Source of the DNA: Candidatus Parcubacteria bacterium
GTDB lineage: Bacteria > Patescibacteriota > Patescibacteriia > UBA1558 > GWA2-36-10
Direction of reading: 5' to 3'
Assembly (NCBI GenBank): GCA_018669975.1
Contig: JABHSK010000008.1
Span: forward strand, 2,622-66,621
DNA length: 64,000 nucleotides
Position numbers and translations under genes: made by a program. Shown one piece after another: positions 10,638 through 59,277 of this stretch (position 1 is the first letter of the stretch; every line of letters starts with the position of its first letter). The notes under the pieces were generated by a model. That model was not told the DNA's origin and did not search any database. It saw nothing but the letters and a program-made list of their open reading frames with translations.

Positions 10638-11147
10638 TTAGACTCTATAGTGTCCGGGGAGGTATTTTTTGACATGCTTGGCAGTTCTTTTGCCATGATC
10701 TTTGATTATTTGTAGTGAGTCGTGCATCCTACGGTCATTTTCAAATAAATAGGCAAAGTCATCTTTGAGGCCTTTGACTTTCTTGCCGAAGATATATTTT
10801 CTGCAGATCAGCTTGCCAAGCAAGTTTACGGGAATACAACCAAGTAGCATTAGAAAGAAGATGGTCCAGGTCATATTGGTGTTAATATGTAGGCTTGCAA
10901 ACATCATGGCAAAAACATAGAACATTGTGAGAAAGGCACTGCTCATGCCAATGTTGGATTCCATGCCGACTGCTTGGTTCATTTTTTGTAGTAATTGGAC
11001 AGTGCGGTCTTGGTCTTCTTTGGATAATCCTTGTCGGTAGATTTGTAGCTCGATGTGGTCAGTGTACATTATTACCTCTCCTTTATTGAGATGCAACTTT
11101 GCATCATGTTTTATGGAACGTGAATATGACCATATTGCCATAGACAA
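10638..11147 (-). CDS. Hypothetical membrane protein
   Basis: 169-aa ORF with 2-3 predicted TM helices. There is no family-level motif. Confidence 0.45.
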   Translation of the reverse strand: MSMAIWSYSRSIKHDAKLHLNKGEVIMYTDHIELQIYRQGLSKEDQDRTVQLLQKMNQAVGMESNIGMSSAFLTMFYVFAMMFASLHINTNMTWTIFFLMLLGCIPVNLLGKLICRKYIFGKKVKGLKDDFAYLFENDRRMHDSLQIIKDHGKRTAKHVKKYLPGHYRV

Positions 11148-23697: not shown

Positions 23698-25356
<1,659 letters not shown>

Positions 25357-35262: not shown

Positions 35263-35353
35263 GGAGAGGTCGCATAGTTGGTCTAGTGCGCCCGCTTGGA
35301 AAGCGGGTAGAGTGTCAAAACTCTCGCAGGTTCGAATCCTGTCCTCTCCGCCA
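35263..35353 (+). tRNA. tRNA-Ser (anticodon GGA), long variable arm, CCA encoded
   Basis: GGAGAGG...CCTCTCC acceptor stem. The anticodon stem-loop is CCCGC-TTGGAAA-GCGGG (anticodon GGA). There is a long extra arm (GTAGAGTGTCAAAACTCTCGCAG) and a T-loop GGTTCGAATCC, ending GCCA. Confidence 0.85.
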
Positions 35354-37836: not shown

Positions 37837-38556
37837 ATGCAGCATAGGTACAACCCAGATTATATTCATCATCGTGATTCAAAATTAATCTCAAGCATGA
37901 GAGAGGTGGTTTTTGGAATGGAGGATGGTATGGTTTCTACCCTAGGCGCGGTTACTGGTATTGCCGTGGGCAGTCAGGATCCTTTTACTGTTATTTTGGC
38001 TGGTTGTGTTATTATTGCAGTAGAATCTATCTCCATGGGCATGGGTTCTTATATATCAAGTTTGTCAGAGCAAGATATTAGGACGAGGATGTTGTATGAA
38101 GAGAAGATGGAGATAGATGAGTTCCCCTTTGAAGAAGAAAGGGAGTTGCAGGGCATGTATATAGAGGATGGCTGGCCAAAGAAACTAGCAGCAGAGATGT
38201 CCAGGGTAGCCAAAGGAAATAAAAATCTTATGCTGCAGGAAATGGCTTATAGAGAGTTGAATTTTTCTATGAAAGAAAAGAAGCACCCGTGGCGCAATGG
38301 CATCTTCATGTTTTTTGCCTATATAGTGGGTGGTCTAATTCCTTTATTTGCTTATTTTATGGCACCGATTAATACAGCTACCAAGATTTCAGTGGTGATT
38401 ACATTACTTGGTTTGTTTACTCTAGGTGCGGCCACTACTAAATATACCAAAGGAAACTGGATTAAAATGGGCTTTAGAATTTTAATCTTAGGAAGCATTG
38501 CCCTGTTAATGGGTTATTTTATAGGTAAGTTAGCCACTGTTATAAACTTAACATAA
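37837..38556 (+). CDS. VIT1/CCC1-family iron/manganese transporter
   Basis: REVVFGMEDGMVSTLGAVTGIAVG matches the VIT-family REAVFGANDGIVSTFALVAGVAGA motif. About 5 TM helices with a central cytoplasmic acidic loop. Confidence 0.75.
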   Translation: MQHRYNPDYIHHRDSKLISSMREVVFGMEDGMVSTLGAVTGIAVGSQDPFTVILAGCVIIAVESISMGMGSYISSLSEQDIRTRMLYEEKMEIDEFPFEEERELQGMYIEDGWPKKLAAEMSRVAKGNKNLMLQEMAYRELNFSMKEKKHPWRNGIFMFFAYIVGGLIPLFAYFMAPINTATKISVVITLLGLFTLGAATTKYTKGNWIKMGFRILILGSIALLMGYFIGKLATVINLT

Positions 38557-45862: not shown

Positions 45863-47650
45863 ATGAATCCGGTAGAAGAAGTTAAGAATAAACTTGATAT
45901 TGTGGAGATAGTTTCAGGCTATATTAGCTTGAATCAGGTCGGTGGCAACTTTAAAGCTTGCTGCCCTTTTCATAATGAAAAAACACCAAGTTTCATGGTA
46001 TCTAAAGAAAAACAAATTTACCATTGTTTTGGCTGTGATAAGGGTGGAGATGTAATTAGTTTTGTGCAGGAGTATGAAGGGATAGATTTTAAAGAGGCCT
46101 TGAGAATTTTAGCTCAAAAAGCCAACGTGCCTCTTAGTGGGTTTAGCTTTAAACAAAAACAAGATTATAGTCGTCTTTATGAAATAAATAACTTAGCCGC
46201 CGATTTTTATCACAACTTGTTGATGCAGGATTCGCAAGTTGGTAAAAAAGTACTCAAATATTTAGATAATAGAAAAATCAATAAAGGCAGTCTCACTAAT
46301 TGGAGACTGGGTCTATCAGGAGAAAGTTGGGATGGGCTACTCAAGTATTTAATTTCCAAAGGTTTTAAAGAGCAGGATATATTTGAGGCCGGTCTTATTT
46401 TAAGGAAAAAAGATGGTAGTGGGTATTTAGATCGTTTTCGTAAACGATTAATGTTTCCCATTTCTGATACACAGGGTAGGGTGGTTGCTTTTACTTCACG
46501 AACTTTATCTGGTATTGCCTATGATGAAATTGAGCAGGGTGGTAAATATATAAACAGTCCCCAAACCGCCATTTATGATAAGAGTAAAGTTTTGTATGGC
46601 TGGCATTTAGCCAAAGATACGATTCGCAAGAAAAAATATTTGATTATAGTAGAGGGCAACATGGATGCCATCGCTGTATCTCAGACTAGTTCCAAAAATG
46701 TTGTGGCAGTATCTGGTACAGCTCTAACCGCTGATCATATTAAATTGATTAAAAGGTACGCTAATAATATTATTTTGGCCTTTGATGGTGATGCAGCTGG
46801 ATCACGAGCAGCTTTTAGGAGTGTGGTGCTAGGTTGGCAAAATGATATGAACCTGAAGATATTGATTTTACTCAAAGGAAAGGATCCGGCAGACATCGTC
46901 AAAGAGGATCCGCAGAAGTGGTTGCAATTGGTCAAAGATTCAGTGCAGGTCATGGATTATTATTTTAAACGTATTATTGCTGGCGTTGATTTGAGTCGGG
47001 CAGATCACAAGAAGATAGCTATTAGTAAATTATTGCCGATTATTAAATTTCTAAAGAGTCAGGTAGAGCAGGCGCACTATTTAAAATTGATTTCCGATAG
47101 GTTGCAAATACCTTTAGAGATATTACAACAAGATTTAACTAGTACAAAGTCTTTTATAGAAAATCAACAAACCCCGACTACTAAGAGTAATGAAACACAG
47201 AAGAGGGTCTCGTTTTCTCTTAGCGAAGAGTTGTTGTCACTGGTCTTTTTAAAGGGTATTTATCTTGAAAAATTGGTCGCCGAAGTCGAGCCAGAGATGG
47301 TTTCTTCTGACCTAGAGTCCCTTTACAGAAAGGTTGTAATCTACTATACTAAGCATCAGAATTTGGATAATTTCATAGATTATTCAGAATTAGACAATAA
47401 TGAAAAAGAAGCATGGGTAAGATTGTCTATGCTAGGCGAGAAAGACTATCAAAGTTTATCAGATACTGAATTGCTAGATAGTTTTGAAAGTATGTTGTCC
47501 AATCTCAAATTACGTCATCTAGAGGATAAACGGAAAGAGTTAATTGTTGATATTAAGCAGTCGGAATTGACGGGTGATGAACAAAAAGTCAATCAATTAG
47601 AAAGTGAAATTCATTTATTAGGAAAAGAAATAGAAAAGTTAAAAAAATAA
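45863..47650 (+). CDS. dnaG: DNA primase
   Basis: CHC2 zinc finger [35 protein letters not shown]. The Toprim domain reads [13 protein letters not shown] ... AFDGDAAG. Confidence 0.9.
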
Positions 47651-47663
47651 TTTACAGCTAAAT

Positions 47664-49028
47664 ATGCCTGTAAAGAAAAAGACTACAATTAAAAAGAAGA
47701 TCACTAAGAAAGTGGTCAAAAAAAACACTGCCAAAAAAAGCAGTGCTACCAAACCTATCAAGGTACGTAAACCGGTTGCCAAAAAGAAAAAAGCAACGGT
47801 CAAAAAAACTACCAGCAAAAAGGTAACTAAAAAAACTCCTAAAAAAGTGGTTAAGAAAACCAAGGCAGTTAAAAAAGTTGCCAAGAAAACAACTAAGATT
47901 GCCAAGAAAAAGGCGGTCAAAAAAGTAAAAGCTCCAAAGGCAAAACTTAATAAGGACTTGGTTGAAAATTTAATCAAGAAATCTCGTTCACGTAGCTTTA
48001 TTACAGAAGACGAGGTCTTGAGGATTTTTACAGACATGGAAGATTATACTTCAAGCTTTGAAGATTTCCTAGATACATTGGATGACCTAGCTATTCAGAT
48101 TATTGCCACCGAAGGCGGTATTCTGGATATGCAAGCCAATGCTTCCGATATTTTATCAAAATCAGGATTAGGTAGCGACAAGAATCGTGGTGACCTGACA
48201 GATATTGCATCGGATTCTATTCAGATGTATCTCAGAGAAATAGGCAAAGTGCCTTTGCTAAAAGGAGAGGAAGAGGTAATGTATGCCAAGCGTAAGGAAA
48301 GAGGACAGTTGGATGCTAAAAAGAAGTTGATTGAAGCAAATCTTCGTTTGGTAGTTAGTATTGCCAAAAAATTTACTGGCAGGTCACTGACACTTTTGGA
48401 TTTGATCCAAGAAGGTAACATCGGGTTATTTAGAGCAGTGGAGAAATTTGATTACCGCAAGGGGTATAAATTTTCTACCTATGCAACTTGGTGGATTCGC
48501 CAGGCTATTACTCGTGCCCTAGCTGATCAATCTAGAACTATCAGAATTCCAGTTCATATGGTTGAAACAATTAATCGTTTTAATCAAATAGAGCGTAGAC
48601 TAGTCCAAGAATTGGGCAGAGATCCATTGCCAGAAGAAATTGCTGCTGAGATGGGCGAAGAAGTTGACAAGATTAGACAGATTATAAAAATATCCCAAGA
48701 GACAGTTTCTTTGGAAGCATCAGTTGGTGATGATGATGAAGATAGTACTCTAGGAGACTTCATTGAAGATGAGAAGAATATCGGTCCTGACAAAGTAGCT
48801 TCATTAAAGTTATTAAGTGATCATGTTAAAAAAGTTATTTCTGATTTGACTCCTCGAGAGCAGAAAATTTTGGAGATGCGCTTCGGTCTAAGTGACGGAG
48901 TAGCACATACCTTGGAAGAAGTTGGACAGGAATTTGGTGTGACTCGTGAGCGTATTAGACAGATAGAAGCCAAGGCTCTAGAGCGTATCAAAAAGCACGA
49001 AGACATGAGAAAATTGAGAGATTACTAA
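47664..49028 (+). CDS. rpoD: RNA polymerase sigma-70 factor RpoD with Lys-rich N-terminal extension
   Basis: Region 2 [40 protein letters not shown]. Region 4 [24 protein letters not shown]. The N-terminal roughly 95 aa are a K/T/V-rich low-complexity tract. Follows dnaG as in the conserved macromolecular-synthesis operon. Confidence 0.9.
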
Positions 49029-49046
49029 AGATATATTACAATTTAA

Positions 49047-49082
49047 AACCCGCCCAGTCGAATAGATTTAGGGCGGGTTTTA
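49047..49082 (+). terminator. Rho-independent terminator after rpoD
   Basis: aaacccgccc-agtcgaatagattta-gggcgggtttta. Confidence 0.8.
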
Positions 49083-49094
49083 CTTATCATTTTT

Positions 49095-49571
49095 TTGTGT
49101 TATCATAAACTTATGTTTCTAACACCACATACTTCAGTAGCTTTATGGATAACCACCAAGGTCGATAATCCCGGCCTGGCTTTTGTTTTTGCCCTAATTT
49201 CTCATTTTATTTTGGACATTATTCCACACGGAGACGAGTCTATCGGCAAGCATAAAGCCAAGGGTCGAGCAAGATTTTTTTATCTAGTTAAGGTAGCTTT
49301 TGTGGACATTATTTTAGCAACTATATTGGTATATTATTATATAATGCAAAACAATGGTTTTGACAGAATGATTATGGTTGGTGCACTGATGGGTGCTTGG
49401 GTACCTGATTTTCTCTGGATAGGCATTGAGACTTTTAGACTTCGCTTTCTAAACTTCTACATAAGGTTTCATAGTCGGGTGCATCGTTTGATAGATTGGC
49501 ATTATTCACCAGTATATGGTGTGCCTTTTCAAATCATATTCACCCTGTTTATGATTAAGATGGCTTTTTGA
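49095..49571 (+). CDS. Hypothetical membrane protein
   Basis: 158 aa with 4 predicted TM helices. Confidence 0.4.
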   Translation: MCYHKLMFLTPHTSVALWITTKVDNPGLAFVFALISHFILDIIPHGDESIGKHKAKGRARFFYLVKVAFVDIILATILVYYYIMQNNGFDRMIMVGALMGAWVPDFLWIGIETFRLRFLNFYIRFHSRVHRLIDWHYSPVYGVPFQIIFTLFMIKMAF

Positions 49572-49581
49572 TAACAAGCAA

Positions 49582-51219
49582 ATGATGGAAATAGCTAAAA
49601 GAAAATTTTATCATCCATTAGTCTGGTTGATTTTTTTAGTGGTCGCCCTATTGGCATATCATAAGTCACTGGGAAATTATTTTGTTTCAGATGATTGGCA
49701 TTGGCTATCATTGGCTAGAGATACCAGTTGGAGCTGGCATATTTTTTGGTCTAACTATGAGGGCACCAACTTAGGTGGGTCCTATAATCCATTATTAATT
49801 TCAATCTGGAAGTTATTTTTTAATATTTTTCAGCTCAAATATTCTGCTTATCATTTAGTGAGTTTGATTTTGCATGCCAGTAACGCTTTTGTGCTTTATC
49901 TACTCGCTAAAAAAATATTTACTTTGACCAAACTAGCCAGTAAAGAATTTTGGTCTATTGTGGCTGCTAGTTTATTTTTGTTGTGGCCAGTGCAGGTAGA
50001 GGCTGTTACTTGGATTTCAGCTTGGCCACATCCTTGGGTAACTATACTTTATTTACTATCATTATTATTTTATTTTTCCTGGCGTCAGCAAGGACGCAGA
50101 AAGCACATTTACGTATCTTTAATATTTTTTGTTTTAGCTTTATTGATTAAAGAAGTGGCCATTAGTTTGCCATTTGTGATTTTATTGTGGGAAGCTTATT
50201 TTCATTCTACTAGAGATAGAATCAAAACCAAGACATTGCCCATCTATTTTATTATTCTAGCCTTGTTTATTTTTATTCGCTATCAAGCTACGGCAGTTTT
50301 ATTTGGTTATTATGGTCGCAGTTCGTTTGGTTGGCCAATTAAAGAATGGATCGGCAACATAGGCGGACTCCTTAATGATTTTCTATCAGCTGGATATTTT
50401 AGGGAAATGTATTTTAAGGGATGGTATCATTATCTTGATTCGCTGGTTATTGTGATCACGGTTGCTCTGGGAATATATTTTTATTATCTACTGGCAAAGA
50501 AAAAATTTTTACAGTTTACTATTTTCTTCTCTTTGCTACTTAGCATGGTGCCAGCTTTACCGCTTGGTCTTAGTCGAACAACTTTTGAAGGAGAGCGATA
50601 TCTTTATCTACCGAGTATATTTTTTATTCTTTGGTTTGTATATATCCTAGCTAAGATACGTTTAGCTCAAAAATTTAAATATATATTGCTAGTAGTTTTA
50701 TTGTTGTCTAATCTGGTTACTGTTTGTTATAAAAATAATATTTGGCGAGCAGCCGCAGATTTAAGCAATCAAATAGTCAGTAGTTTTGATAGATTGGATT
50801 CCCCAGCTGGGCAAAAACTAATGACAGTGGCCCTGCCTGATAATCTATCTGGCGCTCAAGTCTTTCGTAACAATTTACAGCAGGCGCTAGAATTTACTTA
50901 TCCAGACAAAGCCCCACGAATTTTATCACTACCAGTTTATCAGAGATTTACTATGTTTAATATTAACGATCGTTTGTTGAATTGGCAGTCTAAAGATGTA
51001 GGTTGGTTGGCTGAGAGTCAGAGTGGCGATTTTGTTGTCACCGGCATCACCTCCATAGAAGTAGAGAACATGTATTTTGAACTTTGGAATTATAATTATC
51101 AAAATTATACCTCAAATATAATTCGTTTAATCCCCAATGAAATTTTGGCGGAGCAATTAAACTCGCAAGACATTAATTTACTTATTTTTGACAGAGGATT
51201 GTTGAAGCTTTTTAAGTAA
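49582..51219 (+). CDS. Large multi-pass membrane protein, GT-C-like glycosyltransferase (PMT/ArnT-like) candidate
   Basis: 545 aa with more than 10 TM helices. The first loop has the D-D-W-H acidic motif (FVSDDWHWLSLA) seen in GT-C (PMT_2/ArnT) family transferases. Confidence 0.4.
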   Translation: MMEIAKRKFYHPLVWLIFLVVALLAYHKSLGNYFVSDDWHWLSLARDTSWSWHIFWSNYEGTNLGGSYNPLLISIWKLFFNIFQLKYSAYHLVSLILHASNAFVLYLLAKKIFTLTKLASKEFWSIVAASLFLLWPVQVEAVTWISAWPHPWVTILYLLSLLFYFSWRQQGRRKHIYVSLIFFVLALLIKEVAISLPFVILLWEAYFHSTRDRIKTKTLPIYFIILALFIFIRYQATAVLFGYYGRSSFGWPIKEWIGNIGGLLNDFLSAGYFREMYFKGWYHYLDSLVIVITVALGIYFYYLLAKKKFLQFTIFFSLLLSMVPALPLGLSRTTFEGERYLYLPSIFFILWFVYILAKIRLAQKFKYILLVVLLLSNLVTVCYKNNIWRAAADLSNQIVSSFDRLDSPAGQKLMTVALPDNLSGAQVFRNNLQQALEFTYPDKAPRILSLPVYQRFTMFNINDRLLNWQSKDVGWLAESQSGDFVVTGITSIEVENMYFELWNYNYQNYTSNIIRLIPNEILAEQLNSQDINLLIFDRGLLKLFK

Positions 51220-51255
51220 TTTAGACAAAAAATTCACCTTGACCTTATCCATGAC

Positions 51256-51290
51256 GCGTGTTATAAATAAGTGTTTTTGTAGTACTTTTA
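51256..51290 (+). promoter_or_regulatory. Candidate sigma70-like promoter (TTGACC-17-TATAAA) upstream of the MutS-domain gene
   Basis: ttgacc ttatccatgacgcgtgt tataaat, about 100 nt upstream of the RBS aaaaggagag. Confidence 0.3.
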
Positions 51291-51388
51291 TATTTAGAGA
51301 ATAACTAGTGTTTTAGACTAGTGCTATATAGATTATCGTAAGTATTGTCACGGTAAAAACCTAAAACCACACTCAAAAGGAGAGTCAA

Positions 51389-53425
51389 ATGGCCGCAACC
51401 GTACCGAAGATTCCCTATCCGGAACCTGATAAGCTCACTCTTTGGAACACCAGTGTTTCCAAGAAGGATCGTCTCAGGATTATTAATGAGGAAGATTTTC
51501 CTCGCGAGGAGATTCTCAGTAGTCTGGGTCTGGGTAAGAAATCGGAATTGGTCAAAAGTTTTGGTATCACTGATGAAGGTGAGCTTCGTGCTCGTCATGC
51601 ACTCGGTGCCATGCTCTTAGCCGACGATGATTTCATGGACTGGTCACGACAGAATCATCGTTCGTTACCCAATATTCCCGCGAACGAAGGAGCTTTTTTG
51701 GAGTTCTATGATCCCCAGTTGGAGCACAATCCCTACTGGACTGAAGTTCATCGTTTCCTGGCTTTCGTGGACAACTATCCCGATCCGCCTGTCAGGCTCA
51801 AGCAAGTAGCTGACAAGCTGCGCGAAGGCTTACCTCTCGAGGACATGGAGACCGAAATGGCTCGGCAGATTGCTGAGCGACTCAAGGTCGTCACGGTTAT
51901 CGAGGGTGTCATGCACATGAGACTGGTTGTGGATCACTATACGCCTACCAAGAAAAATGCCGAAGGCGAGAAGGTTCCCAATGGTCCGTCATTTTGGAGA
52001 CTGAAAGATATTTCTCATTCACACAGCAGGGTATTTGGCCATCGGCTCTATAGTCAAGGCCTGTCCTCTGTGCGTATGGTGGAAAATCCCGACTGGAACA
52101 AAAGCAAGTGGAATCCGGCCATCTGGCTGGGTATTGCTAAGGCTTGGCGGGGTGTCGTTAATCTGCGTAACTGGTGGCGTCGCCGTAAGGCTTATCGTCA
52201 GATGGTGATCACCGGGCAAAGCAAAGATATGGTTAAGGATGTTGGCGACGCTATCAAGCGACGCATTTCTAAGGTTCCTATGAGCGATAAGTTCAATGGA
52301 GCGCTAGTGACAGTGTCTTTTGTCTATGACAAGGATGGTCTTAGGGTTCAGATTATGGACATCAAGTCTGCCAAGCGTACCCTGGATAGTGATCAACGTC
52401 GCGAGATTTCTTCGGGCGTCGATAATTTCGAGGGCTATACTTCATTACAGAAGGAGCAGATCGAAAGGGCTCACGTCGAGCGACGTGAAGCTGCTATGGA
52501 ACTGCAACGTTGTCAGAAGTCCGACGCTCTGCGCCTACTTTTAGCAGCAGTTAATCCAAGCTTCTTCAGTAGTCTGACAACCGAGCGCTCAACGGAGATG
52601 GACAAAGAGTATCGCTGGTTCGCTATCAGTAATGAATACTACGGTCGCTGGGATGAGCTTTATCAAGCTCTGCGTCAGAATCGTGGTTTCTTTACCCGTC
52701 ACTTCAATCGACTGAGCCAGGTGGCTGAGTTGGTCAACAAGGTGGCTGATAAGGGTAGAGATCTCGGTGTCCCTGTTTGTTCACCGGAGATTGTTTCCAA
52801 TGGTCATATTGTGGTCTTTGAAAAACTCTGGCCTACACACCTGCTTTTCCGTTTGGATCGCAAGTCGGTAGTTCCGATCGAGCGTTTGCCCGAGCTCAAT
52901 GGGCAGATGATCGGTTTGACTGGCAAGCATGGTGGCGGCAAGACTGAAACTCAGATTGCGGTGGTAGCCAACATCTATCTGGCCCATTCTGGTGTACCGG
53001 TCTTCGGCAGCTACTTCAAGTCCAACGTCAAAAAGGTGTTGGGTATGGTCTTTATTGCCCAGCGTGGTGATGGCTCGACCTGCGAGATGTTGCTGGCCAA
53101 GATCCGCAAGGTCCTCGAAGGTATCAAAAAGTGCGACGGCAGAGAAGTCGTACTGGTACTGGACGAGGTCGGTTCGGCTACTCAGGAAGTGGCTGGCTTC
53201 GAACTCGGTCGTGACCTGCTGTCCACTCTGTCCGGACGAAACGTCTCTGTGCTCTTTAGCACGCAGATCACTTCGCTGGCAGAGTATGCTGACACTGAAC
53301 TGGGAGCTTTGAGTTTCCAGATGGATCGCAAGCACAGGATTAATACCGGCATCGGTGATGGCGGCATGACTGACTTGCGTCGTTCCATGGGAGTGGATAA
53401 GTTCCTGACCAAAGTCGCTAGCTAA
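51389..53425 (+). CDS. Standalone MutS domain V-like ABC ATPase with large uncharacterised N-terminal region
   Basis: C-terminal 230 aa: IGLTGKHGGGKTETQIAVVANIYLAHSGVPVFG (compare MutS [31 protein letters not shown]), GDGSTCEMLLAKI (MutS GRSTFMVEM), VVLVLDEVGSATQEVAGFELGRDLLSTL (MutS [23 protein letters not shown]), VLFSTQITSLAE (MutS TLFATHYFELT). The N-terminal roughly 450 aa have no recognisable motif. The coding DNA is visibly G+C-richer than the genome background. Confidence 0.6.
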   Translation: MAATVPKIPYPEPDKLTLWNTSVSKKDRLRIINEEDFPREEILSSLGLGKKSELVKSFGITDEGELRARHALGAMLLADDDFMDWSRQNHRSLPNIPANEGAFLEFYDPQLEHNPYWTEVHRFLAFVDNYPDPPVRLKQVADKLREGLPLEDMETEMARQIAERLKVVTVIEGVMHMRLVVDHYTPTKKNAEGEKVPNGPSFWRLKDISHSHSRVFGHRLYSQGLSSVRMVENPDWNKSKWNPAIWLGIAKAWRGVVNLRNWWRRRKAYRQMVITGQSKDMVKDVGDAIKRRISKVPMSDKFNGALVTVSFVYDKDGLRVQIMDIKSAKRTLDSDQRREISSGVDNFEGYTSLQKEQIERAHVERREAAMELQRCQKSDALRLLLAAVNPSFFSSLTTERSTEMDKEYRWFAISNEYYGRWDELYQALRQNRGFFTRHFNRLSQVAELVNKVADKGRDLGVPVCSPEIVSNGHIVVFEKLWPTHLLFRLDRKSVVPIERLPELNGQMIGLTGKHGGGKTETQIAVVANIYLAHSGVPVFGSYFKSNVKKVLGMVFIAQRGDGSTCEMLLAKIRKVLEGIKKCDGREVVLVLDEVGSATQEVAGFELGRDLLSTLSGRNVSVLFSTQITSLAEYADTELGALSFQMDRKHRINTGIGDGGMTDLRRSMGVDKFLTKVAS

Positions 53426-53502
53426 TTCTCTAATCTATATTCCCTGTCACTTCGGTGGCAGGGCTTTTTATTTTCTTGAAAAACAGAATACCCCTTTAAT
53501 CG

Positions 53503-53531
53503 TTGACATTTCGTAAAAAATATGGTATTAT
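53503..53531 (+). promoter_or_regulatory. Strong sigma70-like promoter (TTGACA-17-TATTAT) followed by a leader hairpin
   Basis: ttgaca-tttcgtaaaaaatatgg-tattat. About 30 nt downstream is the hairpin accacg-gggttt-cgtggt, within the 5' leader of the 53576/53606 ORF. Confidence 0.45.
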
Positions 53532-53605
53532 TTCTAATCGCGTAAATTTAAGCGCAAAACCCACCACGGGGTTTCGTGGTAGCACTTTCACAAAGAGGTT
53601 GTGCA

Positions 53606-54205
53606 ATGCACGATTACACGGTTGTACTGGGTGTTGGAGCAGCTTTGTTCCACGGTGCAGCCTACGTGTTGTACAACATCCAAACTCACTTCGGAAAATC
53701 AAAACCAAATCCAGCTAGCTGGGCCATTTGGACACTGTTGTCTATTTTAAATGCCTGGTCTTTTAAGGAAGTTAGTGCGGACAATCTGTCCACTCTGCAA
53801 TTTTTTACTGGCTCGGTGGCCTGCATGATCACTTTTTTCTATACCTGGTATCGAGGTAAACTCAAAAGCCTCAAGCCTAGCGAATGGAGAATTTTAGCTC
53901 TAGCTTTGTCAGTCATCCTAGTCTGGCGAATATTTAACAGCGCTACTGGTGCTAACATGCTCGTCGTCCTAACTTTCATCATTTCATTTATTCCCACCCT
54001 TAAGGGTGTACTAGCTGATCCGTTCAAGGAGTCACCGCGTTCTTGGTGGCTATGGACTATGGCTTTTGCCCTTACCATCGGTAGTATCCTACTGCGTTGG
54101 AGGGGAGAACCTCTAGCACTGGTCATGCCGATCGTTCTGTTGATTGCTCACGGCAGTATTGCCGTACTTTCATCGCAGAAGCGTAAAGATAAATTTTCCA
54201 CTTGA
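53606..54205 (+). CDS. Hypothetical multi-pass membrane protein (G+C-rich island)
   Basis: About 200 aa with 6 predicted TM helices (VVLGVGAALFHGAAYVLY...; WAIWTLLSILNAW...). The start is ambiguous between GTG/ATG 53576 and ATG 53606 (MHDYTVVL). G+C is higher than the flanking genome. Confidence 0.45.
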   Translation: MHDYTVVLGVGAALFHGAAYVLYNIQTHFGKSKPNPASWAIWTLLSILNAWSFKEVSADNLSTLQFFTGSVACMITFFYTWYRGKLKSLKPSEWRILALALSVILVWRIFNSATGANMLVVLTFIISFIPTLKGVLADPFKESPRSWWLWTMAFALTIGSILLRWRGEPLALVMPIVLLIAHGSIAVLSSQKRKDKFST

Positions 54206-54217
54206 GTTATTCGACAC

Positions 54218-54265
54218 CGAGGCAAGTATTTCACAGCATGTGAAACAACTACCTCGGTTTTTTAA
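54218..54265 (+). terminator. Rho-independent terminator
   Basis: accgagg-caagtatttcacagcatgtgaaacaactac-ctcggtttttt. Confidence 0.55.
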
Positions 54266-54305
54266 TAAATAAAAGAACAGCTCCACGGGGAGTTGTTCTT
54301 CAAGT

Positions 54306-54797
54306 CTAATTTTTACTAGTACCTATCACTATCAAAGTTTTTCCATTGTCTTCTCCAATGGTAATGGAGACACTACGGTCATCTTTCTCAGCGCCTAGCA
54401 TGACATTGTTTTCAATCACGAAAGACATGGTTGTATTCCAGCCTTCTTCTTCTAATTTGTTTTCATACTCCTCTTGTAGCTCGGTGACAGATTTAGTAGA
54501 TTCAATACTGACATTAAAGATTCCATTTTCATGACTAGAGGCAGAAGTAATTGCACCTTCGGCAATATAAATGTCATCTGGCCAATCTTCAGGTAATTCT
54601 GTTCCAGCGCCAACTTGCATCGTGCCTTCATCAGTTTTTATTTTTACAGAGTCATCGTCTAGATCCACATCTGCATTGCCACCCATGGAGTTTTCAATTT
54701 GTTTCTCCATTGATTTTTCAGTAGCCGTTTTCTTGCCACAAGCACTAAGTGTTAGTGATAGCAACAAACAAAAGCTAATAATAAAGAGTTTTTTCAT
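54306..54797 (-). CDS. Putative lipoprotein (hypothetical)
   Basis: Signal peptide plus lipobox: MKKLFIISFCLLLSLTLSACGKK. The mature part is acidic and soluble. Confidence 0.5.
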   Translation of the reverse strand: MKKLFIISFCLLLSLTLSACGKKTATEKSMEKQIENSMGGNADVDLDDDSVKIKTDEGTMQVGAGTELPEDWPDDIYIAEGAITSASSHENGIFNVSIESTKSVTELQEEYENKLEEEGWNTTMSFVIENNVMLGAEKDDRSVSITIGEDNGKTLIVIGTSKN

Positions 54798-54806
54798 ATG
54801 CTTTTA

Positions 54807-55454
54807 TTAATTATTGAATAAATAATTTCCTCCGGTAGCACTACAGGTGCCGGCTGCATAGGTGATTAAGTCACCAGTGATTGGATCACCACCATGAGGA
54901 TAATACCAAATAATTGTTTCGTAACTAGTACCAACAGAATTTTGGCAGCCTCCTGAGGTGGGTTGCGGACAAGGATTATCACTATATATGCCTACACCTT
55001 GGCAGTTTAAATCTTTGACACTTGGGGTTGCCCAATAAGAGCCAATATAGTCTGTGCAAACACTAGAATCGTTTATCACATTACATGAACCAATAGCATT
55101 AGACTCCTCACCACTACCTGGTCCGTTTGGTTCATCATCTTCTAGTCCAGCATAATAATCGTCTGATCCGGGTCCTTGTGGCTCTGGTTCATATGGCAGT
55201 TCTTCACCTGATCCGGGTCCAGTTGGTTCTGGTGAATAATCGAATTCACCACTGCCAGGACCATCGTAGGCGGGATCATGTTCTAGTCCAGCATTATAAT
55301 CATCTGAACCGGGATTATCGTATTCGGCAAAATCTCCACTACCTGGTCCTGTCGGTTCGTCGGGAAACCAATCATCAAGTTGAGTATAAATAATGCCACC
55401 AACAATTACTAAAGCAGCTGCTCCTCCTATGGCAATTCCCTTTAATCTATCCAT
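54807..55454 (-). CDS. Secreted/anchored acidic repeat protein with GPGSG(E/D) repeats and Cys-rich C-terminal domain
   Basis: N-terminal TM helix, then at least 5 repeats of (E/D)P-x-GPGSG(E/D)... (PTGPGSGDFAEYDNPGSDDY / DGPGSGEFDYSPEPTGPGSGEELPYEPEPQGPGSDDYY / PNGPGSGEE). The C-terminal roughly 90 aa contain 8 Cys. Confidence 0.45.
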   Translation of the reverse strand: MDRLKGIAIGGAAALVIVGGIIYTQLDDWFPDEPTGPGSGDFAEYDNPGSDDYNAGLEHDPAYDGPGSGEFDYSPEPTGPGSGEELPYEPEPQGPGSDDYYAGLEDDEPNGPGSGEESNAIGSCNVINDSSVCTDYIGSYWATPSVKDLNCQGVGIYSDNPCPQPTSGGCQNSVGTSYETIIWYYPHGGDPITGDLITYAAGTCSATGGNYLFNN

Positions 55455-55543
55455 AATAGTTATTAATTTTATTATATAAGCATTATAGCACTAAAATTTT
55501 TTATGTAAAATAAAAGGAGCCGCTAAGCGACTCCAGGATAAAA

Positions 55544-56614
55544 TTAATTGGGTTGGCGATAAGCGAATTTGTATTTCAGTTCTTTTTCTACCAACTCACC
55601 CTCCCAGGGACCAACAAAGGTAGCTCCGGCCAACCAGTCTTTGCTCTCAGTGCTGTAGCTACGACTAGCTCGGTAGGCCTTTTTGCCATCTCGGCCAACA
55701 CGGTAACACAAAAAGCCTCCGTAGTTATTGAGTGCAACTACAACCCAGTCAAGCTGATCATTAAGCCACTCATCTGATCCTTTGGATTGTTTTCTTACAT
55801 TGACTCTGACATGGGCTGGTAGCGGCAGGTCTCTGATAGTTCCCTTACGGATGATATCACCTGACTTGAATGTCTTAGGCACTCTTTCTTTCTTAGGCTT
55901 TTGAGCCTGTGCCTTGGGTACGTCTGCCAAGCCTCGTTGTTCCAGTGTTTCGCAGAGAAGATTCAGGAATTCGATATCCCGTTCGACACGAGTGGCCTTG
56001 AAAGAAGCATCGTAATCGACTACTTCAAAGTCAGGGTCTGCATCCCGTATTTCTTCTTCTACATCAGCGTAGGACATAAGCACTTGGGCATAGGCCGAAC
56101 GTTTGTCGGCAAGGATTTCACAGATAGCTGTGATATTTTTTTCTTTCCAGCCATAGTCTTTGCCAAACATCCCAGCGCCATGATACTCAGCACCCTTTTG
56201 TTTGCCAACGCCTCTGAGGAAGCGGACAAAAGCTGAGCGAGCCCAAGTCTTGGGAATTTCTGTCAGTGCCCGAAGGATAGTATAGAGCTCTCGGCGGCTT
56301 TGAGGGTTGTTGTGAATATCGAGCACTTCAATTGTTTTTGGTGCATCAGAATTAACAAATGCACCGTCCAAGGAAATGAATAATTCACCACGACTGCCAA
56401 CAAAAATCAGCAGAGCATTGAGGAATTCGTTTGGCCGTGCTTGTACACGGCGAACCTTGGTAATTAGATGAGCTCCCTCGATAGCTTCTTTCTGAGCCCA
56501 ATACTCACTATGTGACATGCCGGCATCTCGTTTTTGAGCATATTCAGTGCTGGCAGCATCCAAACTCTTTTTTAATGCTACTAACTCTGTCTTAGTGAAA
56601 AGTGGTTTAGCCAT
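55544..56614 (-). CDS. Hypothetical 356-aa protein (orphan, G+C-rich)
   Basis: Good RBS (aaaggaggcc-ATG on the minus strand) and uninterrupted coding potential. No family motif recognised. G+C is clearly above the genome background. Confidence 0.5.
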   Translation of the reverse strand: MAKPLFTKTELVALKKSLDAASTEYAQKRDAGMSHSEYWAQKEAIEGAHLITKVRRVQARPNEFLNALLIFVGSRGELFISLDGAFVNSDAPKTIEVLDIHNNPQSRRELYTILRALTEIPKTWARSAFVRFLRGVGKQKGAEYHGAGMFGKDYGWKEKNITAICEILADKRSAYAQVLMSYADVEEEIRDADPDFEVVDYDASFKATRVERDIEFLNLLCETLEQRGLADVPKAQAQKPKKERVPKTFKSGDIIRKGTIRDLPLPAHVRVNVRKQSKGSDEWLNDQLDWVVVALNNYGGFLCYRVGRDGKKAYRASRSYSTESKDWLAGATFVGPWEGELVEKELKYKFAYRQPN

Positions 56615-56763
56615 TTTGGCCTCCTTTGTTTGTGGTCTTGTTTCAAGGTGCTATATTAAAAACAATAGATATGCCATAATATTTCACCTTACCTTAGCAC
56701 TTAGCCATTTATTCTGTCAAACAAAAAACCGATCAATCTAGATCAGTTTTTATATTCAAAATT

Positions 56764-57399
56764 TTATTTAACGAGATATCGTTGAGCCTCTGCCAGTTTG
56801 TTTTTGAAGTGGGTATCTGTATTGTATAGTTTTAAGTTATATTTTTTTGCCTCCCTATTAAAAAATTTACTGAGCTCAACTATCATATGAGCAATTTTCA
56901 AGTAGGTTGTTTCATTTTTCGTTCTATTCACAAACCAATCATTTTTATCTGCAAATTTTTTACCCTTACTTACAATATCCTCGGCGTCCATTTTTGTAAA
57001 AAAGACAGCCCTTACATTGCGTGGTCCATATTTCTTGCTTAGTTTTTTAACTAGCTCAGGATGAATATGGTAGCCTTCGATAACAATACTCCTACCCTCA
57101 TATAATTCACAGTCAACAAATGTCTCAACGGCAGTCCATATTGCCCGTGACTGTTTGAGGTAAGTGGAGGTTATTTGCTTAGTGGTATATTGACTGTACA
57201 TTAAATCATTGCTGTATTTGGTTTTTCTTCTGATGACAGTTTTGGGAAATTTTTTTGTTATTTCTTTTGCTGACATACAAGATCGGACAACTCTTTCAAG
57301 GGTGTCTGTAGATAACCAACTAACATTCAATTTTTTGCTTAGTCTTTTTGCGGTAGTTGTTTTACCACAGCGTGGTGCACCACCTATTAAATAAATCAT
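56764..57399 (-). CDS. P-loop NTPase/kinase-like protein
   Basis: MIYLIGGAPRCGKTTTAKRLS Walker A at the N-terminus. An internal Met was chosen as the start rather than the upstream MFIKKCYNLC extension. About 210 aa, AT-rich (native composition). Confidence 0.5.
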   Translation of the reverse strand: MIYLIGGAPRCGKTTTAKRLSKKLNVSWLSTDTLERVVRSCMSAKEITKKFPKTVIRRKTKYSNDLMYSQYTTKQITSTYLKQSRAIWTAVETFVDCELYEGRSIVIEGYHIHPELVKKLSKKYGPRNVRAVFFTKMDAEDIVSKGKKFADKNDWFVNRTKNETTYLKIAHMIVELSKFFNREAKKYNLKLYNTDTHFKNKLAEAQRYLVK

Positions 57400-57425
57400 G
57401 CATAAATTATAGCATTTTTTTATAA

Positions 57426-57453
57426 ACAAAAAAACCGCCAGTAGGCGGTCTTT
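57426..57453 (-). terminator. Rho-independent terminator downstream of typA
   Basis: Minus strand: agaccgcc-tact-ggcggttttttt. Confidence 0.65.
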
Positions 57454-57459
57454 AATATA

Positions 57460-59277
57460 TTAGGCTTTAGTACTTCTCTTTCTATCGTTTTCAGTTAAAC
57501 CTTGTTTACGTAGGCGGATACTATCTGGAGTTATTTCTAAATATTCATCTTCAGAGATTATTTCTAAACCAGTTTCAATAGTCAGTATAGCTGGTGGAGT
57601 CAAAGTAATAGCATCATCAGCACCTGAACTACGCATATTAGTCAGTTGCTTACCTTTGATTGGATTGACTGCCATATCAAAGCCTTTGGCGGTATTACCA
57701 ATGACCATGCCTTCGTAGACATCTACGCCAGGTCCAATATATAGATCACCACGTTCTTGCAGATTGAATAATGAAAAACCTAGAGCTTTACCAGTAGCCA
57801 TTGAAATCATAGAACCAACATTACGTTTTTTGATCTCACCAGTATAAGGACGATATTCAAGGAAGTGTGAGCAAAGGATTCCTTCACCACGAGTATCAAC
57901 AGTAAATTCACCACGATAGCCAAGCAGGCCTCTGGTTGGTATTTCAAACACCAAACGCATTTGGCCATTTTCAGTGTTCATAGAAGTGACAATACCTTTT
58001 CGTTTGCCAAGTTTTTCCATCACTACACCAGAACTGACTTCCGGCACATCGATAGTCACTTCTTCAAAAGGTTCAAATTTTTTGCCATCTCTTTCTTCGA
58101 TAATTACTTTTGGTTGAGATACTTGCAATTCATAACCTTCACGACGCATTTGTTCAATCAAGATAGCAGCGTGTAATTCACCACGACTATATACTTTGAA
58201 GTATTCACCAGAAAAATCAATTTTCATTCCAACATTAACTTCTAGTTCTTTTTCCAAACGTTCTTTGATTTGTTTGCTGGTCACATATTTACCTTCACGA
58301 CCAGCTAGAGGAGAGTTGTTTACCAAAAAATCTAGAGAGATAGTTGGTTCATCTACAGTGATAGCAGGTAGAGCTTCTTGCTCGGTGTTTAGACATAGAG
58401 TTTCACCAATATCAATACCAGGAAAACCAGCGATCATCACAATATCACCAGCCACAGCTTCTTCGGTTTCTTTTCTTTCCAAACCATGAAAGGTAAACAG
58501 CTTGCTGACACGACCAGTTTCATTTGTGCCATCCATTTTCTTTAGAGTCAAATTAGAACCAGTTTTTAGACTACCTTCATAGATACGGCCAATAGCCATA
58601 CGTCCCAAGAAATTGTCATAGGCTAGATTGAAAACCTGACAACGTAGATCAGTTTTTAAGTCTGATTTAGCAGCTGGTACTTTTTCCAAGACCACATCCA
58701 ACAGAGGCATGATATCTTTATCTTCATCAGTTAGATAGCGTTTGGCAGTACCATTTTTGGCAATAGCATAGACAGTAGTAAAATCTAATTGTTCATCAGT
58801 AGCACCCAGGTCCATAAACAATTCAAAAACTTGTTCATGAGCTAGATTAGGATTAGCAGCTGGTTTATCGATTTTGTTTAGTATAACAATTGGCTTCAAA
58901 CCCAATTCCAAAGATTTCTTTAAAACAAATCTAGTTTGAGGCATTGGACCTTCTTGAGCATCAACTACCAAGAGCACAGAGTCGATTGAACGGAGTACTC
59001 GTTCTACTTCTGAACCAAAATCAGCATGACCAGGAGTATCAACAATATTGATCTTTGTGTCTTTATAGAAGACAGAGGCGTTTTTTGAGTATATCGTAAT
59101 TCCACGCTCTTTTTCGAGTGTGTTTGAGTCCATACTGACACTTTCGTCTGATAGGGCACCTGTTTGCTTGAGGATAGCATCCGTCAAAGCAGTCTTGCCG
59201 TGATCAACGTGTGCGATAATTGCAATATTTCTTATTTCCATAGCCGCAAGGATAACAGGAATAGGGTTAAATGTCAA
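57460..59277 (-). CDS. typA: Translational GTPase TypA/BipA
   Basis: IRNIAIIAHVDHGKTALTDAIL (G1), DTPGHADF (G3), NKIDK (G4), then EF-G-like domains and the BipA C-terminal domain. Confidence 0.9.
   Translation of the reverse strand: MTFNPIPVILAAMEIRNIAIIAHVDHGKTALTDAILKQTGALSDESVSMDSNTLEKERGITIYSKNASVFYKDTKINIVDTPGHADFGSEVERVLRSIDSVLLVVDAQEGPMPQTRFVLKKSLELGLKPIVILNKIDKPAANPNLAHEQVFELFMDLGATDEQLDFTTVYAIAKNGTAKRYLTDEDKDIMPLLDVVLEKVPAAKSDLKTDLRCQVFNLAYDNFLGRMAIGRIYEGSLKTGSNLTLKKMDGTNETGRVSKLFTFHGLERKETEEAVAGDIVMIAGFPGIDIGETLCLNTEQEALPAITVDEPTISLDFLVNNSPLAGREGKYVTSKQIKERLEKELEVNVGMKIDFSGEYFKVYSRGELHAAILIEQMRREGYELQVSQPKVIIEERDGKKFEPFEEVTIDVPEVSSGVVMEKLGKRKGIVTSMNTENGQMRLVFEIPTRGLLGYRGEFTVDTRGEGILCSHFLEYRPYTGEIKKRNVGSMISMATGKALGFSLFNLQERGDLYIGPGVDVYEGMVIGNTAKGFDMAVNPIKGKQLTNMRSSGADDAITLTPPAILTIETGLEIISEDEYLEITPDSIRLRKQGLTENDRKRSTKA

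Follow-up and report, generated by a model that had tools for sequence, protein, structure and literature searches.

Does a G+C-rich block in an AT-rich genome of the Candidate Phyla Radiation (CPR) reflect one horizontal acquisition, several, or none? The question is raised by the window analysed here, a stretch of 64,000 nucleotides from Candidatus Parcubacteria bacterium (assembly GCA_018669975.1, contig JABHSK010000008.1), in which about 5.5 kb at positions 51230-56700 carry five genes, A to E, each of them annotated in NCBI as 'hypothetical protein' (protein accessions of the locus MBT6691606-15). The original prediction, made from the DNA letters, had described a higher-G+C island without mobility genes and had explained it either as an old horizontal acquisition, possibly a defence/offence or surface-interaction module, or as a set of highly expressed genes with atypical composition. 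The reading that we favour, with a probability of roughly 0.6, is that genes are gained and lost at a recombinase-free hotspot, the interval between the gene of a GT-C-like membrane glycosyltransferase (GT-C) and bipA, in a Parcubacteria lineage of the CPR with low G+C. It is carried by the composition of the individual genes, by the pattern of their presence, absence and relocation among close relatives, and by the lack of mobility genes. The genes concerned are listed below, with their G+C content and, where given, the G+C content at third codon positions (GC3).

49582..51219, + strand: GT-C-like membrane glycosyltransferase of 545 aa, the left conserved flank; weak PMT_2 match; G+C 34.6% (native)
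51389..53425, + strand: gene A, a divergent MutS-family protein of 678 aa that combines a novel N-terminal region of ~250 aa with core, clamp and ABC-type ATPase; G+C 50.6%, GC3 0.55
53576..54205, + strand: gene B, a multi-pass membrane protein; G+C 45.9%, GC3 0.45
54306..54797, - strand: gene C, a 163-aa lipoprotein (lipobox LSAC) with a precomputed match to PF27226 (AF_1845); G+C 37.6%, GC3 0.32
54807..55454, - strand: gene D, 215 aa, with a membrane anchor or signal at the N-terminus, five acidic repeats of the (P/D)xGPGSG type and a C-terminal domain with six Cys; G+C 43.5%, GC3 0.24
55544..56614, - strand: gene E, 356 aa, modelled as a helical hairpin at the N-terminus, followed by an RQC-like winged helix, a basic linker and, at the C-terminus, a beta domain; G+C 46.3%, GC3 0.42
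56732..57414, - strand: kinase cassette with a TGCTATAAT promoter, an open reading frame (ORF) and its own terminator; G+C 34.6%
57460..59277, - strand: BipA/TypA translational GTPase, the right conserved flank, beside the interval in the relatives
46 other ORFs of the window, as background: G+C 35.8 ± 3.4%, GC3 0.30 ± 0.07

The compositional island itself is confirmed, and the five ORFs lie at the positions and on the strands originally predicted. The G+C content of the stretch is 45.4%, versus 35.8% for the remaining window and 36.6% for the window as a whole, and in comparison with 953 windows of the same length elsewhere that do not overlap it (mean 35.6%, standard deviation 1.2, maximum 38.0) it stands at z = 7.9. 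The strand-symmetrised tetranucleotide distance, calculated in 2-kb windows, peaks with z = 7.5 at 51501-53500, stays above 4 as far as 54500, and is only about 2 across gene E; the tetranucleotide anomaly is essentially that of A and B, with E marginal. The rise in G+C is thus real and far beyond chance, but it is borne by three genes, A, B and E, while the intergenic DNA within the island is mostly AT-rich (25-40%). The shift toward G/C-ending codons, originally predicted for the whole island, holds for these three genes and not for C and D, whose codon usage is native given that their GC3 values fall within the background; the raised G+C of D is explained by its richness in Gly and Pro, which lifts codon positions 1-2.

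The window belongs to a metagenome-assembled genome (MAG) whose longest contig is 844 kb; its close relatives, which in NCBI bear the label Ca. Komeilibacteria, show how this interval varies. We compared a genome with ~80% nucleotide identity (L007), a contig of 3.1 kb (L049), and a JGI contig of 214 kb (3300072015); the last two were treated as one genome type, since their B proteins fall in the same 90% cluster. The gene orders are as follows.

Window: GT-C, A, B, C D, E, kinase, BipA
L007: GT-C, A, C D, E, BipA
JGI 214-kb contig: sigma-70, 969-aa vault-like protein, orf152, GT-C, C D, B, E, BipA
L049: BipA, E, B, D

The GT-C-like gene and BipA border the interval in the window, in L007 and in the JGI contig, and the content of the slot differs among these close relatives, with three genomes showing three gene orders. 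Gene A is present in L007 (1015-3051) and missing from the JGI relative; the B cassette is missing from L007, and its place in both L049 and the JGI relative is between D and E; the kinase is found in the window only. A, B and the kinase are thus separate indels that vary independently of one another beside a constant C-D-E, and the block in its entirety is not an indel. Between the window and L007, amino acid identity is 77% for GT-C, 85% for A, 65% for C, 78% for D, 79% for E and 94% for BipA, and A and E have the same high G+C in both genomes. The synonymous divergence (dS, Nei-Gojobori) is 0.68 for A and 1.0-2.2 for GT-C, C, D, E and BipA; the lower value of A would fit an exchange of this gene after the lineages split, with a stronger constraint on A as an alternative.

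The clearest case of relocation is gene B, which belongs to a compact cassette with the following parts, all on the + strand.

53484..54263: B cassette of ~780 bp, with promoter, 5' untranslated region (UTR) hairpin, ORF and long terminator hairpin
53503-53531: promoter, a near-consensus motif TTGACA-17-TG-TATTAT
53559-53585: 5'-UTR hairpin CCACCACGGGGTTTCGTGGTAG, conserved in L049 and without an Rfam match
53606-54205: ORF of 199 aa, with an alternative GTG start at 53576
54217-54257: terminator, a long imperfect hairpin followed by a T-tract

The cassette begins with CAGAATA (53484) and ends with CCTCGGTTTTTT (54263), and the promoter bears out the strong promotion that had been read from the sequence. 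Between the window and L049, the cassette is 89.7% identical in nucleotides and 95% in amino acids, with identical ends, while the neighbouring proteins are 76% (E) and ~59-72% (D) identical. Comparison with empty sites in the other genomes indicates a clean insertion beside the A-tract of the neighbour's terminator, and no target-site duplication or inverted repeats are visible at the junctions. The product, by transmembrane scan and repeat search a multi-pass protein with a weak 3+3 internal repeat, has no Pfam, PDB or viral match and is likely, by structural analogy only, a transporter-like membrane protein for small molecules.

The kinase adjacent to BipA had been taken as native, a status that does not hold, as the gene is missing from both sister genomes. 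Its ORF (56764-57399, - strand) encodes 211 aa of a P-loop kinase resembling 2-phosphoglycerate kinase, and the TGCTATAAT -10 element (57399-57414, - strand) lies only 6 nt 5' of the ATG, which suggests a leaderless or near-leaderless mRNA. The cassette is bounded by an A-rich direct repeat of ~13 bp (56709-56731 / 57415-57437) that is part of two similar terminators. In two samples, one assembled with SPAdes and one with megahit, contigs break off at 56741 (E side) and 56750 (kinase side), two points that fall within the kinase terminator hairpin at the cassette edge, and this cluster of contig ends may mark a population polymorphism. Given that the kinase is AT-rich, recent arrivals need not look foreign in composition.

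Genes for mobility were sought and not found, in agreement with the original prediction. No integrase or transposase was detected in Pfam, PHROGs and NCBIfam scans of the five genes and flanks or in the precomputed Pfam matches of the window from 41389 to 64000, and no tRNA was found closer than position 35263, which holds the only one. The region is not bounded by terminal repeats, either inverted or direct, the only hits being AT-rich chance matches, and the units of E and B show no transposase fold, terminal inverted repeats or target-site duplication typical of insertion sequences or transposons. The 9-bp word that had been seen near both edges does exist, as GTGCTATAW with three occurrences, but 15 of 100 shuffles reach three as well; the copies at 51321 and 55483 are the TG-extended -10 elements of the A and D promoters. 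In the case of A this element, TAGTGCTATAT (51319..51329, + strand), lies ~60 bp 5' of the gene. The word was therefore rejected as an attachment site. Phage origin was also rejected, as PHROGs, BFVD and tblastn against phages were all negative for E and B, and the two leads were an E-like and an A-family protein on IMG/VR contigs (L020 and L050, see below). A riboswitch or other RNA in the intergenic DNA was rejected on the negative Rfam result (no match at E <= 1 in the intergenic regions).

Under the favoured reading, the interval would hold self-contained units of one gene with promoter and terminator, which entered or moved at different times, and each could be expressed without disturbing its neighbours since it brings both signals along. 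Genes A and E would be imports from G+C-richer Patescibacteria with amelioration ongoing, B a ~780-bp cassette whose intergenic site differs between sister genomes, the AT-rich kinase the newest arrival, and C-D the resident surface-protein operon of the slot. Such import from a G+C-richer source is the best interpretation of A and E, and a probable one of B. In a back-of-envelope amelioration estimate, the GC3 of A at the split would have been near 0.7, like that of the homologue in a host with 54% G+C. As to the route, DNA of related Patescibacteria might have been taken up and then integrated, either by homologous recombination through the conserved flanks or by illegitimate recombination at A/T tracts beside terminators. 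In Patescibacteria, horizontal gene transfer (HGT) and islands poor in mobility genes have been described, with transfer mostly between Patescibacteria and competence proposed as the route (PMC12455944).

The slot can be placed beside two known types of variable region. With classical tRNA-associated islands that bear an integrase, it shares compositional deviation and accessory genes of unknown function, but differs in having no tRNA, integrase or direct repeats, and in consisting of several indels with a heterogeneous composition confined to A, B and E. Hotspots of HGT in chromosomes, or 'plasticity zones', which lie between core genes without mobile-element genes, were reportedly described in naturally transformable bacteria by Oliveira, Touchon and Rocha in 2017. 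The slot resembles such hotspots in its conserved flanks (GT-C, BipA), variable content, atypical composition and lack of integrase, tRNA and repeats; it differs in its very small scale, with one gene per event, in units that carry their own promoter and terminator, and in the occurrence of B at two positions within one slot.

Several points weigh against this reading. E and C-D occupy the same place in all three close relatives, so the interval is partly stably inherited. What represents the JGI relative is a gene map alone and no DNA sequence. The dS values are high, near saturation and discordant between genes, and the relationships among the three genomes differ for BipA, D and E, which makes the order of events uncertain. 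For B, dS (0.37) is similar to that of BipA (0.42), so that both positions could also be accounted for by a single old insertion and one later rearrangement within the locus. The donors are unsampled, the nearest non-sister homologue of A being 48% identical.

The first alternative holds that the composition is intrinsic, produced by selection on expression, mRNA or protein or by GC-biased gene conversion in recombining accessory genes, with no foreign origin, and we consider it rather unlikely. In its favour, the GC3 of A stays at 0.55-0.58 in the window and L007 despite a dS of 0.68, a 47%-identical homologue in L012 also has ~50% G+C beside an AT-rich flank, and A homologues are 3-5 points above their host everywhere. 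However, the L012 flank covers just 485 bp, and A homologues track the host G+C elsewhere (59.0 vs 53.8%, 44.0 vs 39.6%, 33.6 vs 30.6%), whereas here A stands 15 points above it. Nothing intrinsic forces a high G+C on A, since its homologue in a 31% G+C genome has a GC3 of 0.23. E homologues elsewhere are within ~6 points of host G+C, and here E is 10 points above. A and B are moreover indels among the relatives. As for expression, BipA, sigma-70 and the chaperonin-sized ORF of 547 aa (23713-25356; assigned by size, not scanned) are genes that are usually well expressed, and they have low GC3 values in the window (0.27, 0.34 and 0.23, respectively). Expression-linked codon bias would therefore run the opposite way, and we reject the original alternative, in which high expression goes with the atypical composition.

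A second alternative is that the cassettes, B above all, are moved by a dedicated but unrecognised site-specific mechanism, integron- or transposon-like, with its enzyme encoded elsewhere; this we regard as improbable. What speaks for it is the occurrence of the B unit with identical ends at two intergenic sites, the precise insertion at both sites against the A-tract of a neighbour's terminator, the long imperfect hairpin at the 3' end of the cassette, and the presence of ACAGAATA at the 5' edge of the B cassette and again just 5' of E. Nevertheless, ACAGAATA is not over-represented (6 found vs 3.4 expected) and was rejected as a cassette core site, its terminator role suffices to explain the hairpin, just two insertion sites are observed, the part of the window covered has no integrase or transposase, and terminal inverted repeats and target-site duplications are missing. 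Like integron cassettes, the units here are small, carry a single ORF and take differing positions in an array, but they differ in having their own promoters and terminators and mixed orientation, and no attC-type site or IntI was found; for B, the region has no integrase and the ends lack a core-site pair (attC covariance models not run). In a wider form of the same idea, promoter-ORF-terminator cassettes (B, the kinase, A and perhaps E) would be a distinct CPR mobile unit that inserts precisely beside intrinsic terminators and relocates without a linked recombinase. This, too, is improbable; if true, it would mean an integrase-less, integron-like shuffling of accessory genes in tiny genomes. 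A new mechanism is not required by the evidence.

Very unlikely is the third alternative, in which the whole 5.5 kb was gained once, as a defence/offence or surface-interaction module, and is now decaying. The contiguous G+C-rich signal, the synteny of A-C-D-E in L007 with the same composition, and the content of two genes for nucleic-acid-binding proteins (assigned by analogy) and three for envelope proteins would agree with it. Against it, the GC3 of C and D is native, C-D-E occur without A in the relative that is closest by BipA, B and the kinase vary independently, the genes form four separate, convergent transcription units, and distant homologues of A and E never lie beside other island genes. 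A defence system was rejected for want of a credible PADLOC match, as the scan returned only sub-threshold P-loop noise, namely mad8 (E = 8e-4, a P-loop stretch) and DrmC (E = 6e-3, 47 aa). We infer that the island genes do not act together as a functional module; their co-occurrence does not extend beyond the closest relatives. Of the horizontal acquisition that was originally proposed, what stands concerns A, B and E, with G+C and GC3 far above the host and with A and B varying among the sisters, and what falls is the acquisition as one block.

That the island is an assembly artefact, a chimeric join with DNA of a G+C-richer organism, has next to no probability: the sequence does come from a metagenome and one contig (L003) is genuinely chimeric at gene E, but the same arrangement was recovered by exact-protein look-ups at 99.9-100% identity in over 20 contigs that stem from various samples and assemblers (megahit, SPAdes, JGI, Logan; among them JGI 3300000164, contig name SI39no09_200m), all internal junctions and both island sides are reproduced in independent assemblies, and the island is found with sequence divergence in sister species.

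The chimeric contig deserves a comment, as it could have suggested that gene E moves on its own. Gene E and its flanks (55460-56741, 1282 bp) are 100% identical to the end of this 117-kb contig, where E has other neighbours.

L003 (ERZ508549 NODE_88) 1-1617, with L045 6226-6576: chimeric contig end, a three-part join of gene E, a 351-bp foreign piece and the main contig

The next 351 bp of L003 are, by exact junction search, an internal piece of an 869-aa gene in L045, an unrelated genome that bears a transposase. Given this foreign internal piece, its overlap with the E piece by just 16 AT-rich bases, the renewed divergence of L003 from L045 beyond it, and a coverage of 10.5x for L003 vs 2.5x for the window-like contig of the same sample, L003 was judged an assembly chimera and not used, and E was rejected as a mobile or insertion sequence-like unit.

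Gene A is the strongest compositional outlier of the island, and the MutS-domain-V ATPase with a novel N-terminus that had been predicted is upheld and extended to the core and clamp. The Pfam model MutS_V (PF00488) is matched by 47 of 51 family members, the window protein alone being sub-threshold (E = 0.02), and the family profile matches MutS2 in the PDB at 6.7e-16 and MutS/MSH at ~1e-8 across the ATPase. Residues G512, K518, S563, D592 and E593 are invariant in the family; the Walker A, Walker B and signature motifs of ATPase domain V were found, as were the core/lever and clamp domains (III-IV). None of the 51 members has a MutS_I-IV or Smr match in Pfam. Mismatch-binding and connector domains (I-II) are missing, with the N-terminal ~250 residues lying outside MutS alignments, and so is an Smr endonuclease domain, as nothing follows the ATPase and the terminal helices, which reach the last residue (678). 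The AlphaFold2 (AF2) model has a predicted local distance difference test score (pLDDT) of 93.5. Thus, A consists of a MutS-family core, clamp and ATPase with a novel N-terminal region of ~250 residues and without a nuclease domain, and by analogy it is likely a dimeric ATP-driven clamp of the MutS2 type, acting on DNA or stalled complexes without a nuclease of its own. It differs from MutS2 in lacking the Smr or KOW domain, so that it is not a canonical MutS2, and from MutS1 in lacking the N-terminal mismatch-binding and connector domains. The MutS3 and MutS4 paralogues also lack mismatch-binding domains, and MutS3 is sporadic with suspected HGT (Lin, Nei & Ma 2007, PMC2190696); compared by that description only, the architecture of A (C-terminal core and ATPase) and its sporadic distribution would be compatible with MutS3.

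A HMMER search among 1.84 billion cluster representatives found 299 relatives of A, 191 of them below 1e-30, versus only two in a word-indexed protein search; among the matches listed, most are 600-730 aa long and aligned over their full length. The neighbours of A differ in every genome examined, and its intrinsic terminator is conserved in L007.

53442..53463, + strand: intrinsic terminator of A

A full-length but distant A-family member of 728 aa lies on an IMG/VR contig (L050, 3003-5189) beside a PHROG of unknown function.

Gene E belongs to a family of 74 homologues with 38-90% identity, whose named sources are Uhrbacteria, Paceibacterota, Parcubacteria and Patescibacteria; genome loci were also found in Saccharibacteria MAGs and in one MAG labelled Bdellovibrionales, and only 7 loci among 185,579 GTDB species-representative genomes. 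None of 65 members has a Pfam match, and the AF2 model (pLDDT 93) has no whole-protein match in PDB or BFVD. The modelled winged helix may resemble the RQC winged helix of RecQ-family helicases (WRN, BLM), by analogy with which duplex or branched DNA would be the likely ligand of E. E adjoins BipA in each of the three close relatives, with the kinase unit between them in the window, and at <=63% identity the contexts are unrelated. Its terminator is conserved in L007 and L049.

55516..55534, - strand: intrinsic terminator of E

Variants of the family were seen. In a strain variant (L026, ERZ4200964), a clean in-frame deletion of 105 bp at 56428-56530 leaves a product of 321 aa (P0001). The MAG labelled Bdellovibrionales (L019, 7860-9892) carries two tandem paralogues, one full-length and one comprising the N-terminal two-thirds. 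An IMG/VR 'viral' contig (L020, 7773-8549) encodes, close to an NAD-dependent ligase and an endonuclease, a 258-aa homologue of the N-terminal and winged-helix part.

Genes C and D are likely co-transcribed from a promoter at 55509-55482 (- strand). The lipobox of C agrees with the lipoprotein that had been expected on this strand, and C is present in all three relatives; the five repeats and six cysteines of D likewise match its earlier description as a Cys-rich protein with GPGSG repeats, and the repeat number varies among the relatives (181-230 aa).

Outside the island, the 969-aa protein of the JGI relative carries Vault_3 and MVP_shoulder domains and lies between sigma-70 and orf152, where the window has a 66-bp spacer (~49028-49095); its gene is another single-gene indel nearby, in a CPR genome. 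The start of the sigma-70 gene (47664-48000) encodes a Lys-rich, low-complexity N-terminal extension of ~100 residues, whose repeat composition accounts for a long antisense ORF at 47639-48037. Lone genes with raised GC3 also occur elsewhere in the AT-rich window, namely 794-1354 (rhomboid, 0.55), 1442-2212 (HTH_17/MerR-like, 0.45), 10638-11147 (0.47, without a Pfam match) and 37837-38556 (VIT1, 0.40), and these, too, may have been imported singly.

It is a known phenomenon for an island of deviating composition to turn out to be a hotspot of small, independent gains; the present case concerns a new lineage and uncharacterised gene families. It also serves as a caution, since an island that is uniform to the eye can be a mosaic of unrelated events. 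The family of A, with ~300 cluster representatives, is unannotated and has a new N-terminal domain, and one member lies apparently on a putative viral contig; that of E, of ~355 aa and Patescibacteria-specific, is equally unannotated, with a winged helix modelled as RQC-like. With confident structure models at hand, both families could be characterised biochemically. For the biology of the lineage, the locus offers a gene-by-gene view of how accessory genes are gained and lost in an ultra-small CPR genome without mobile-element machinery.

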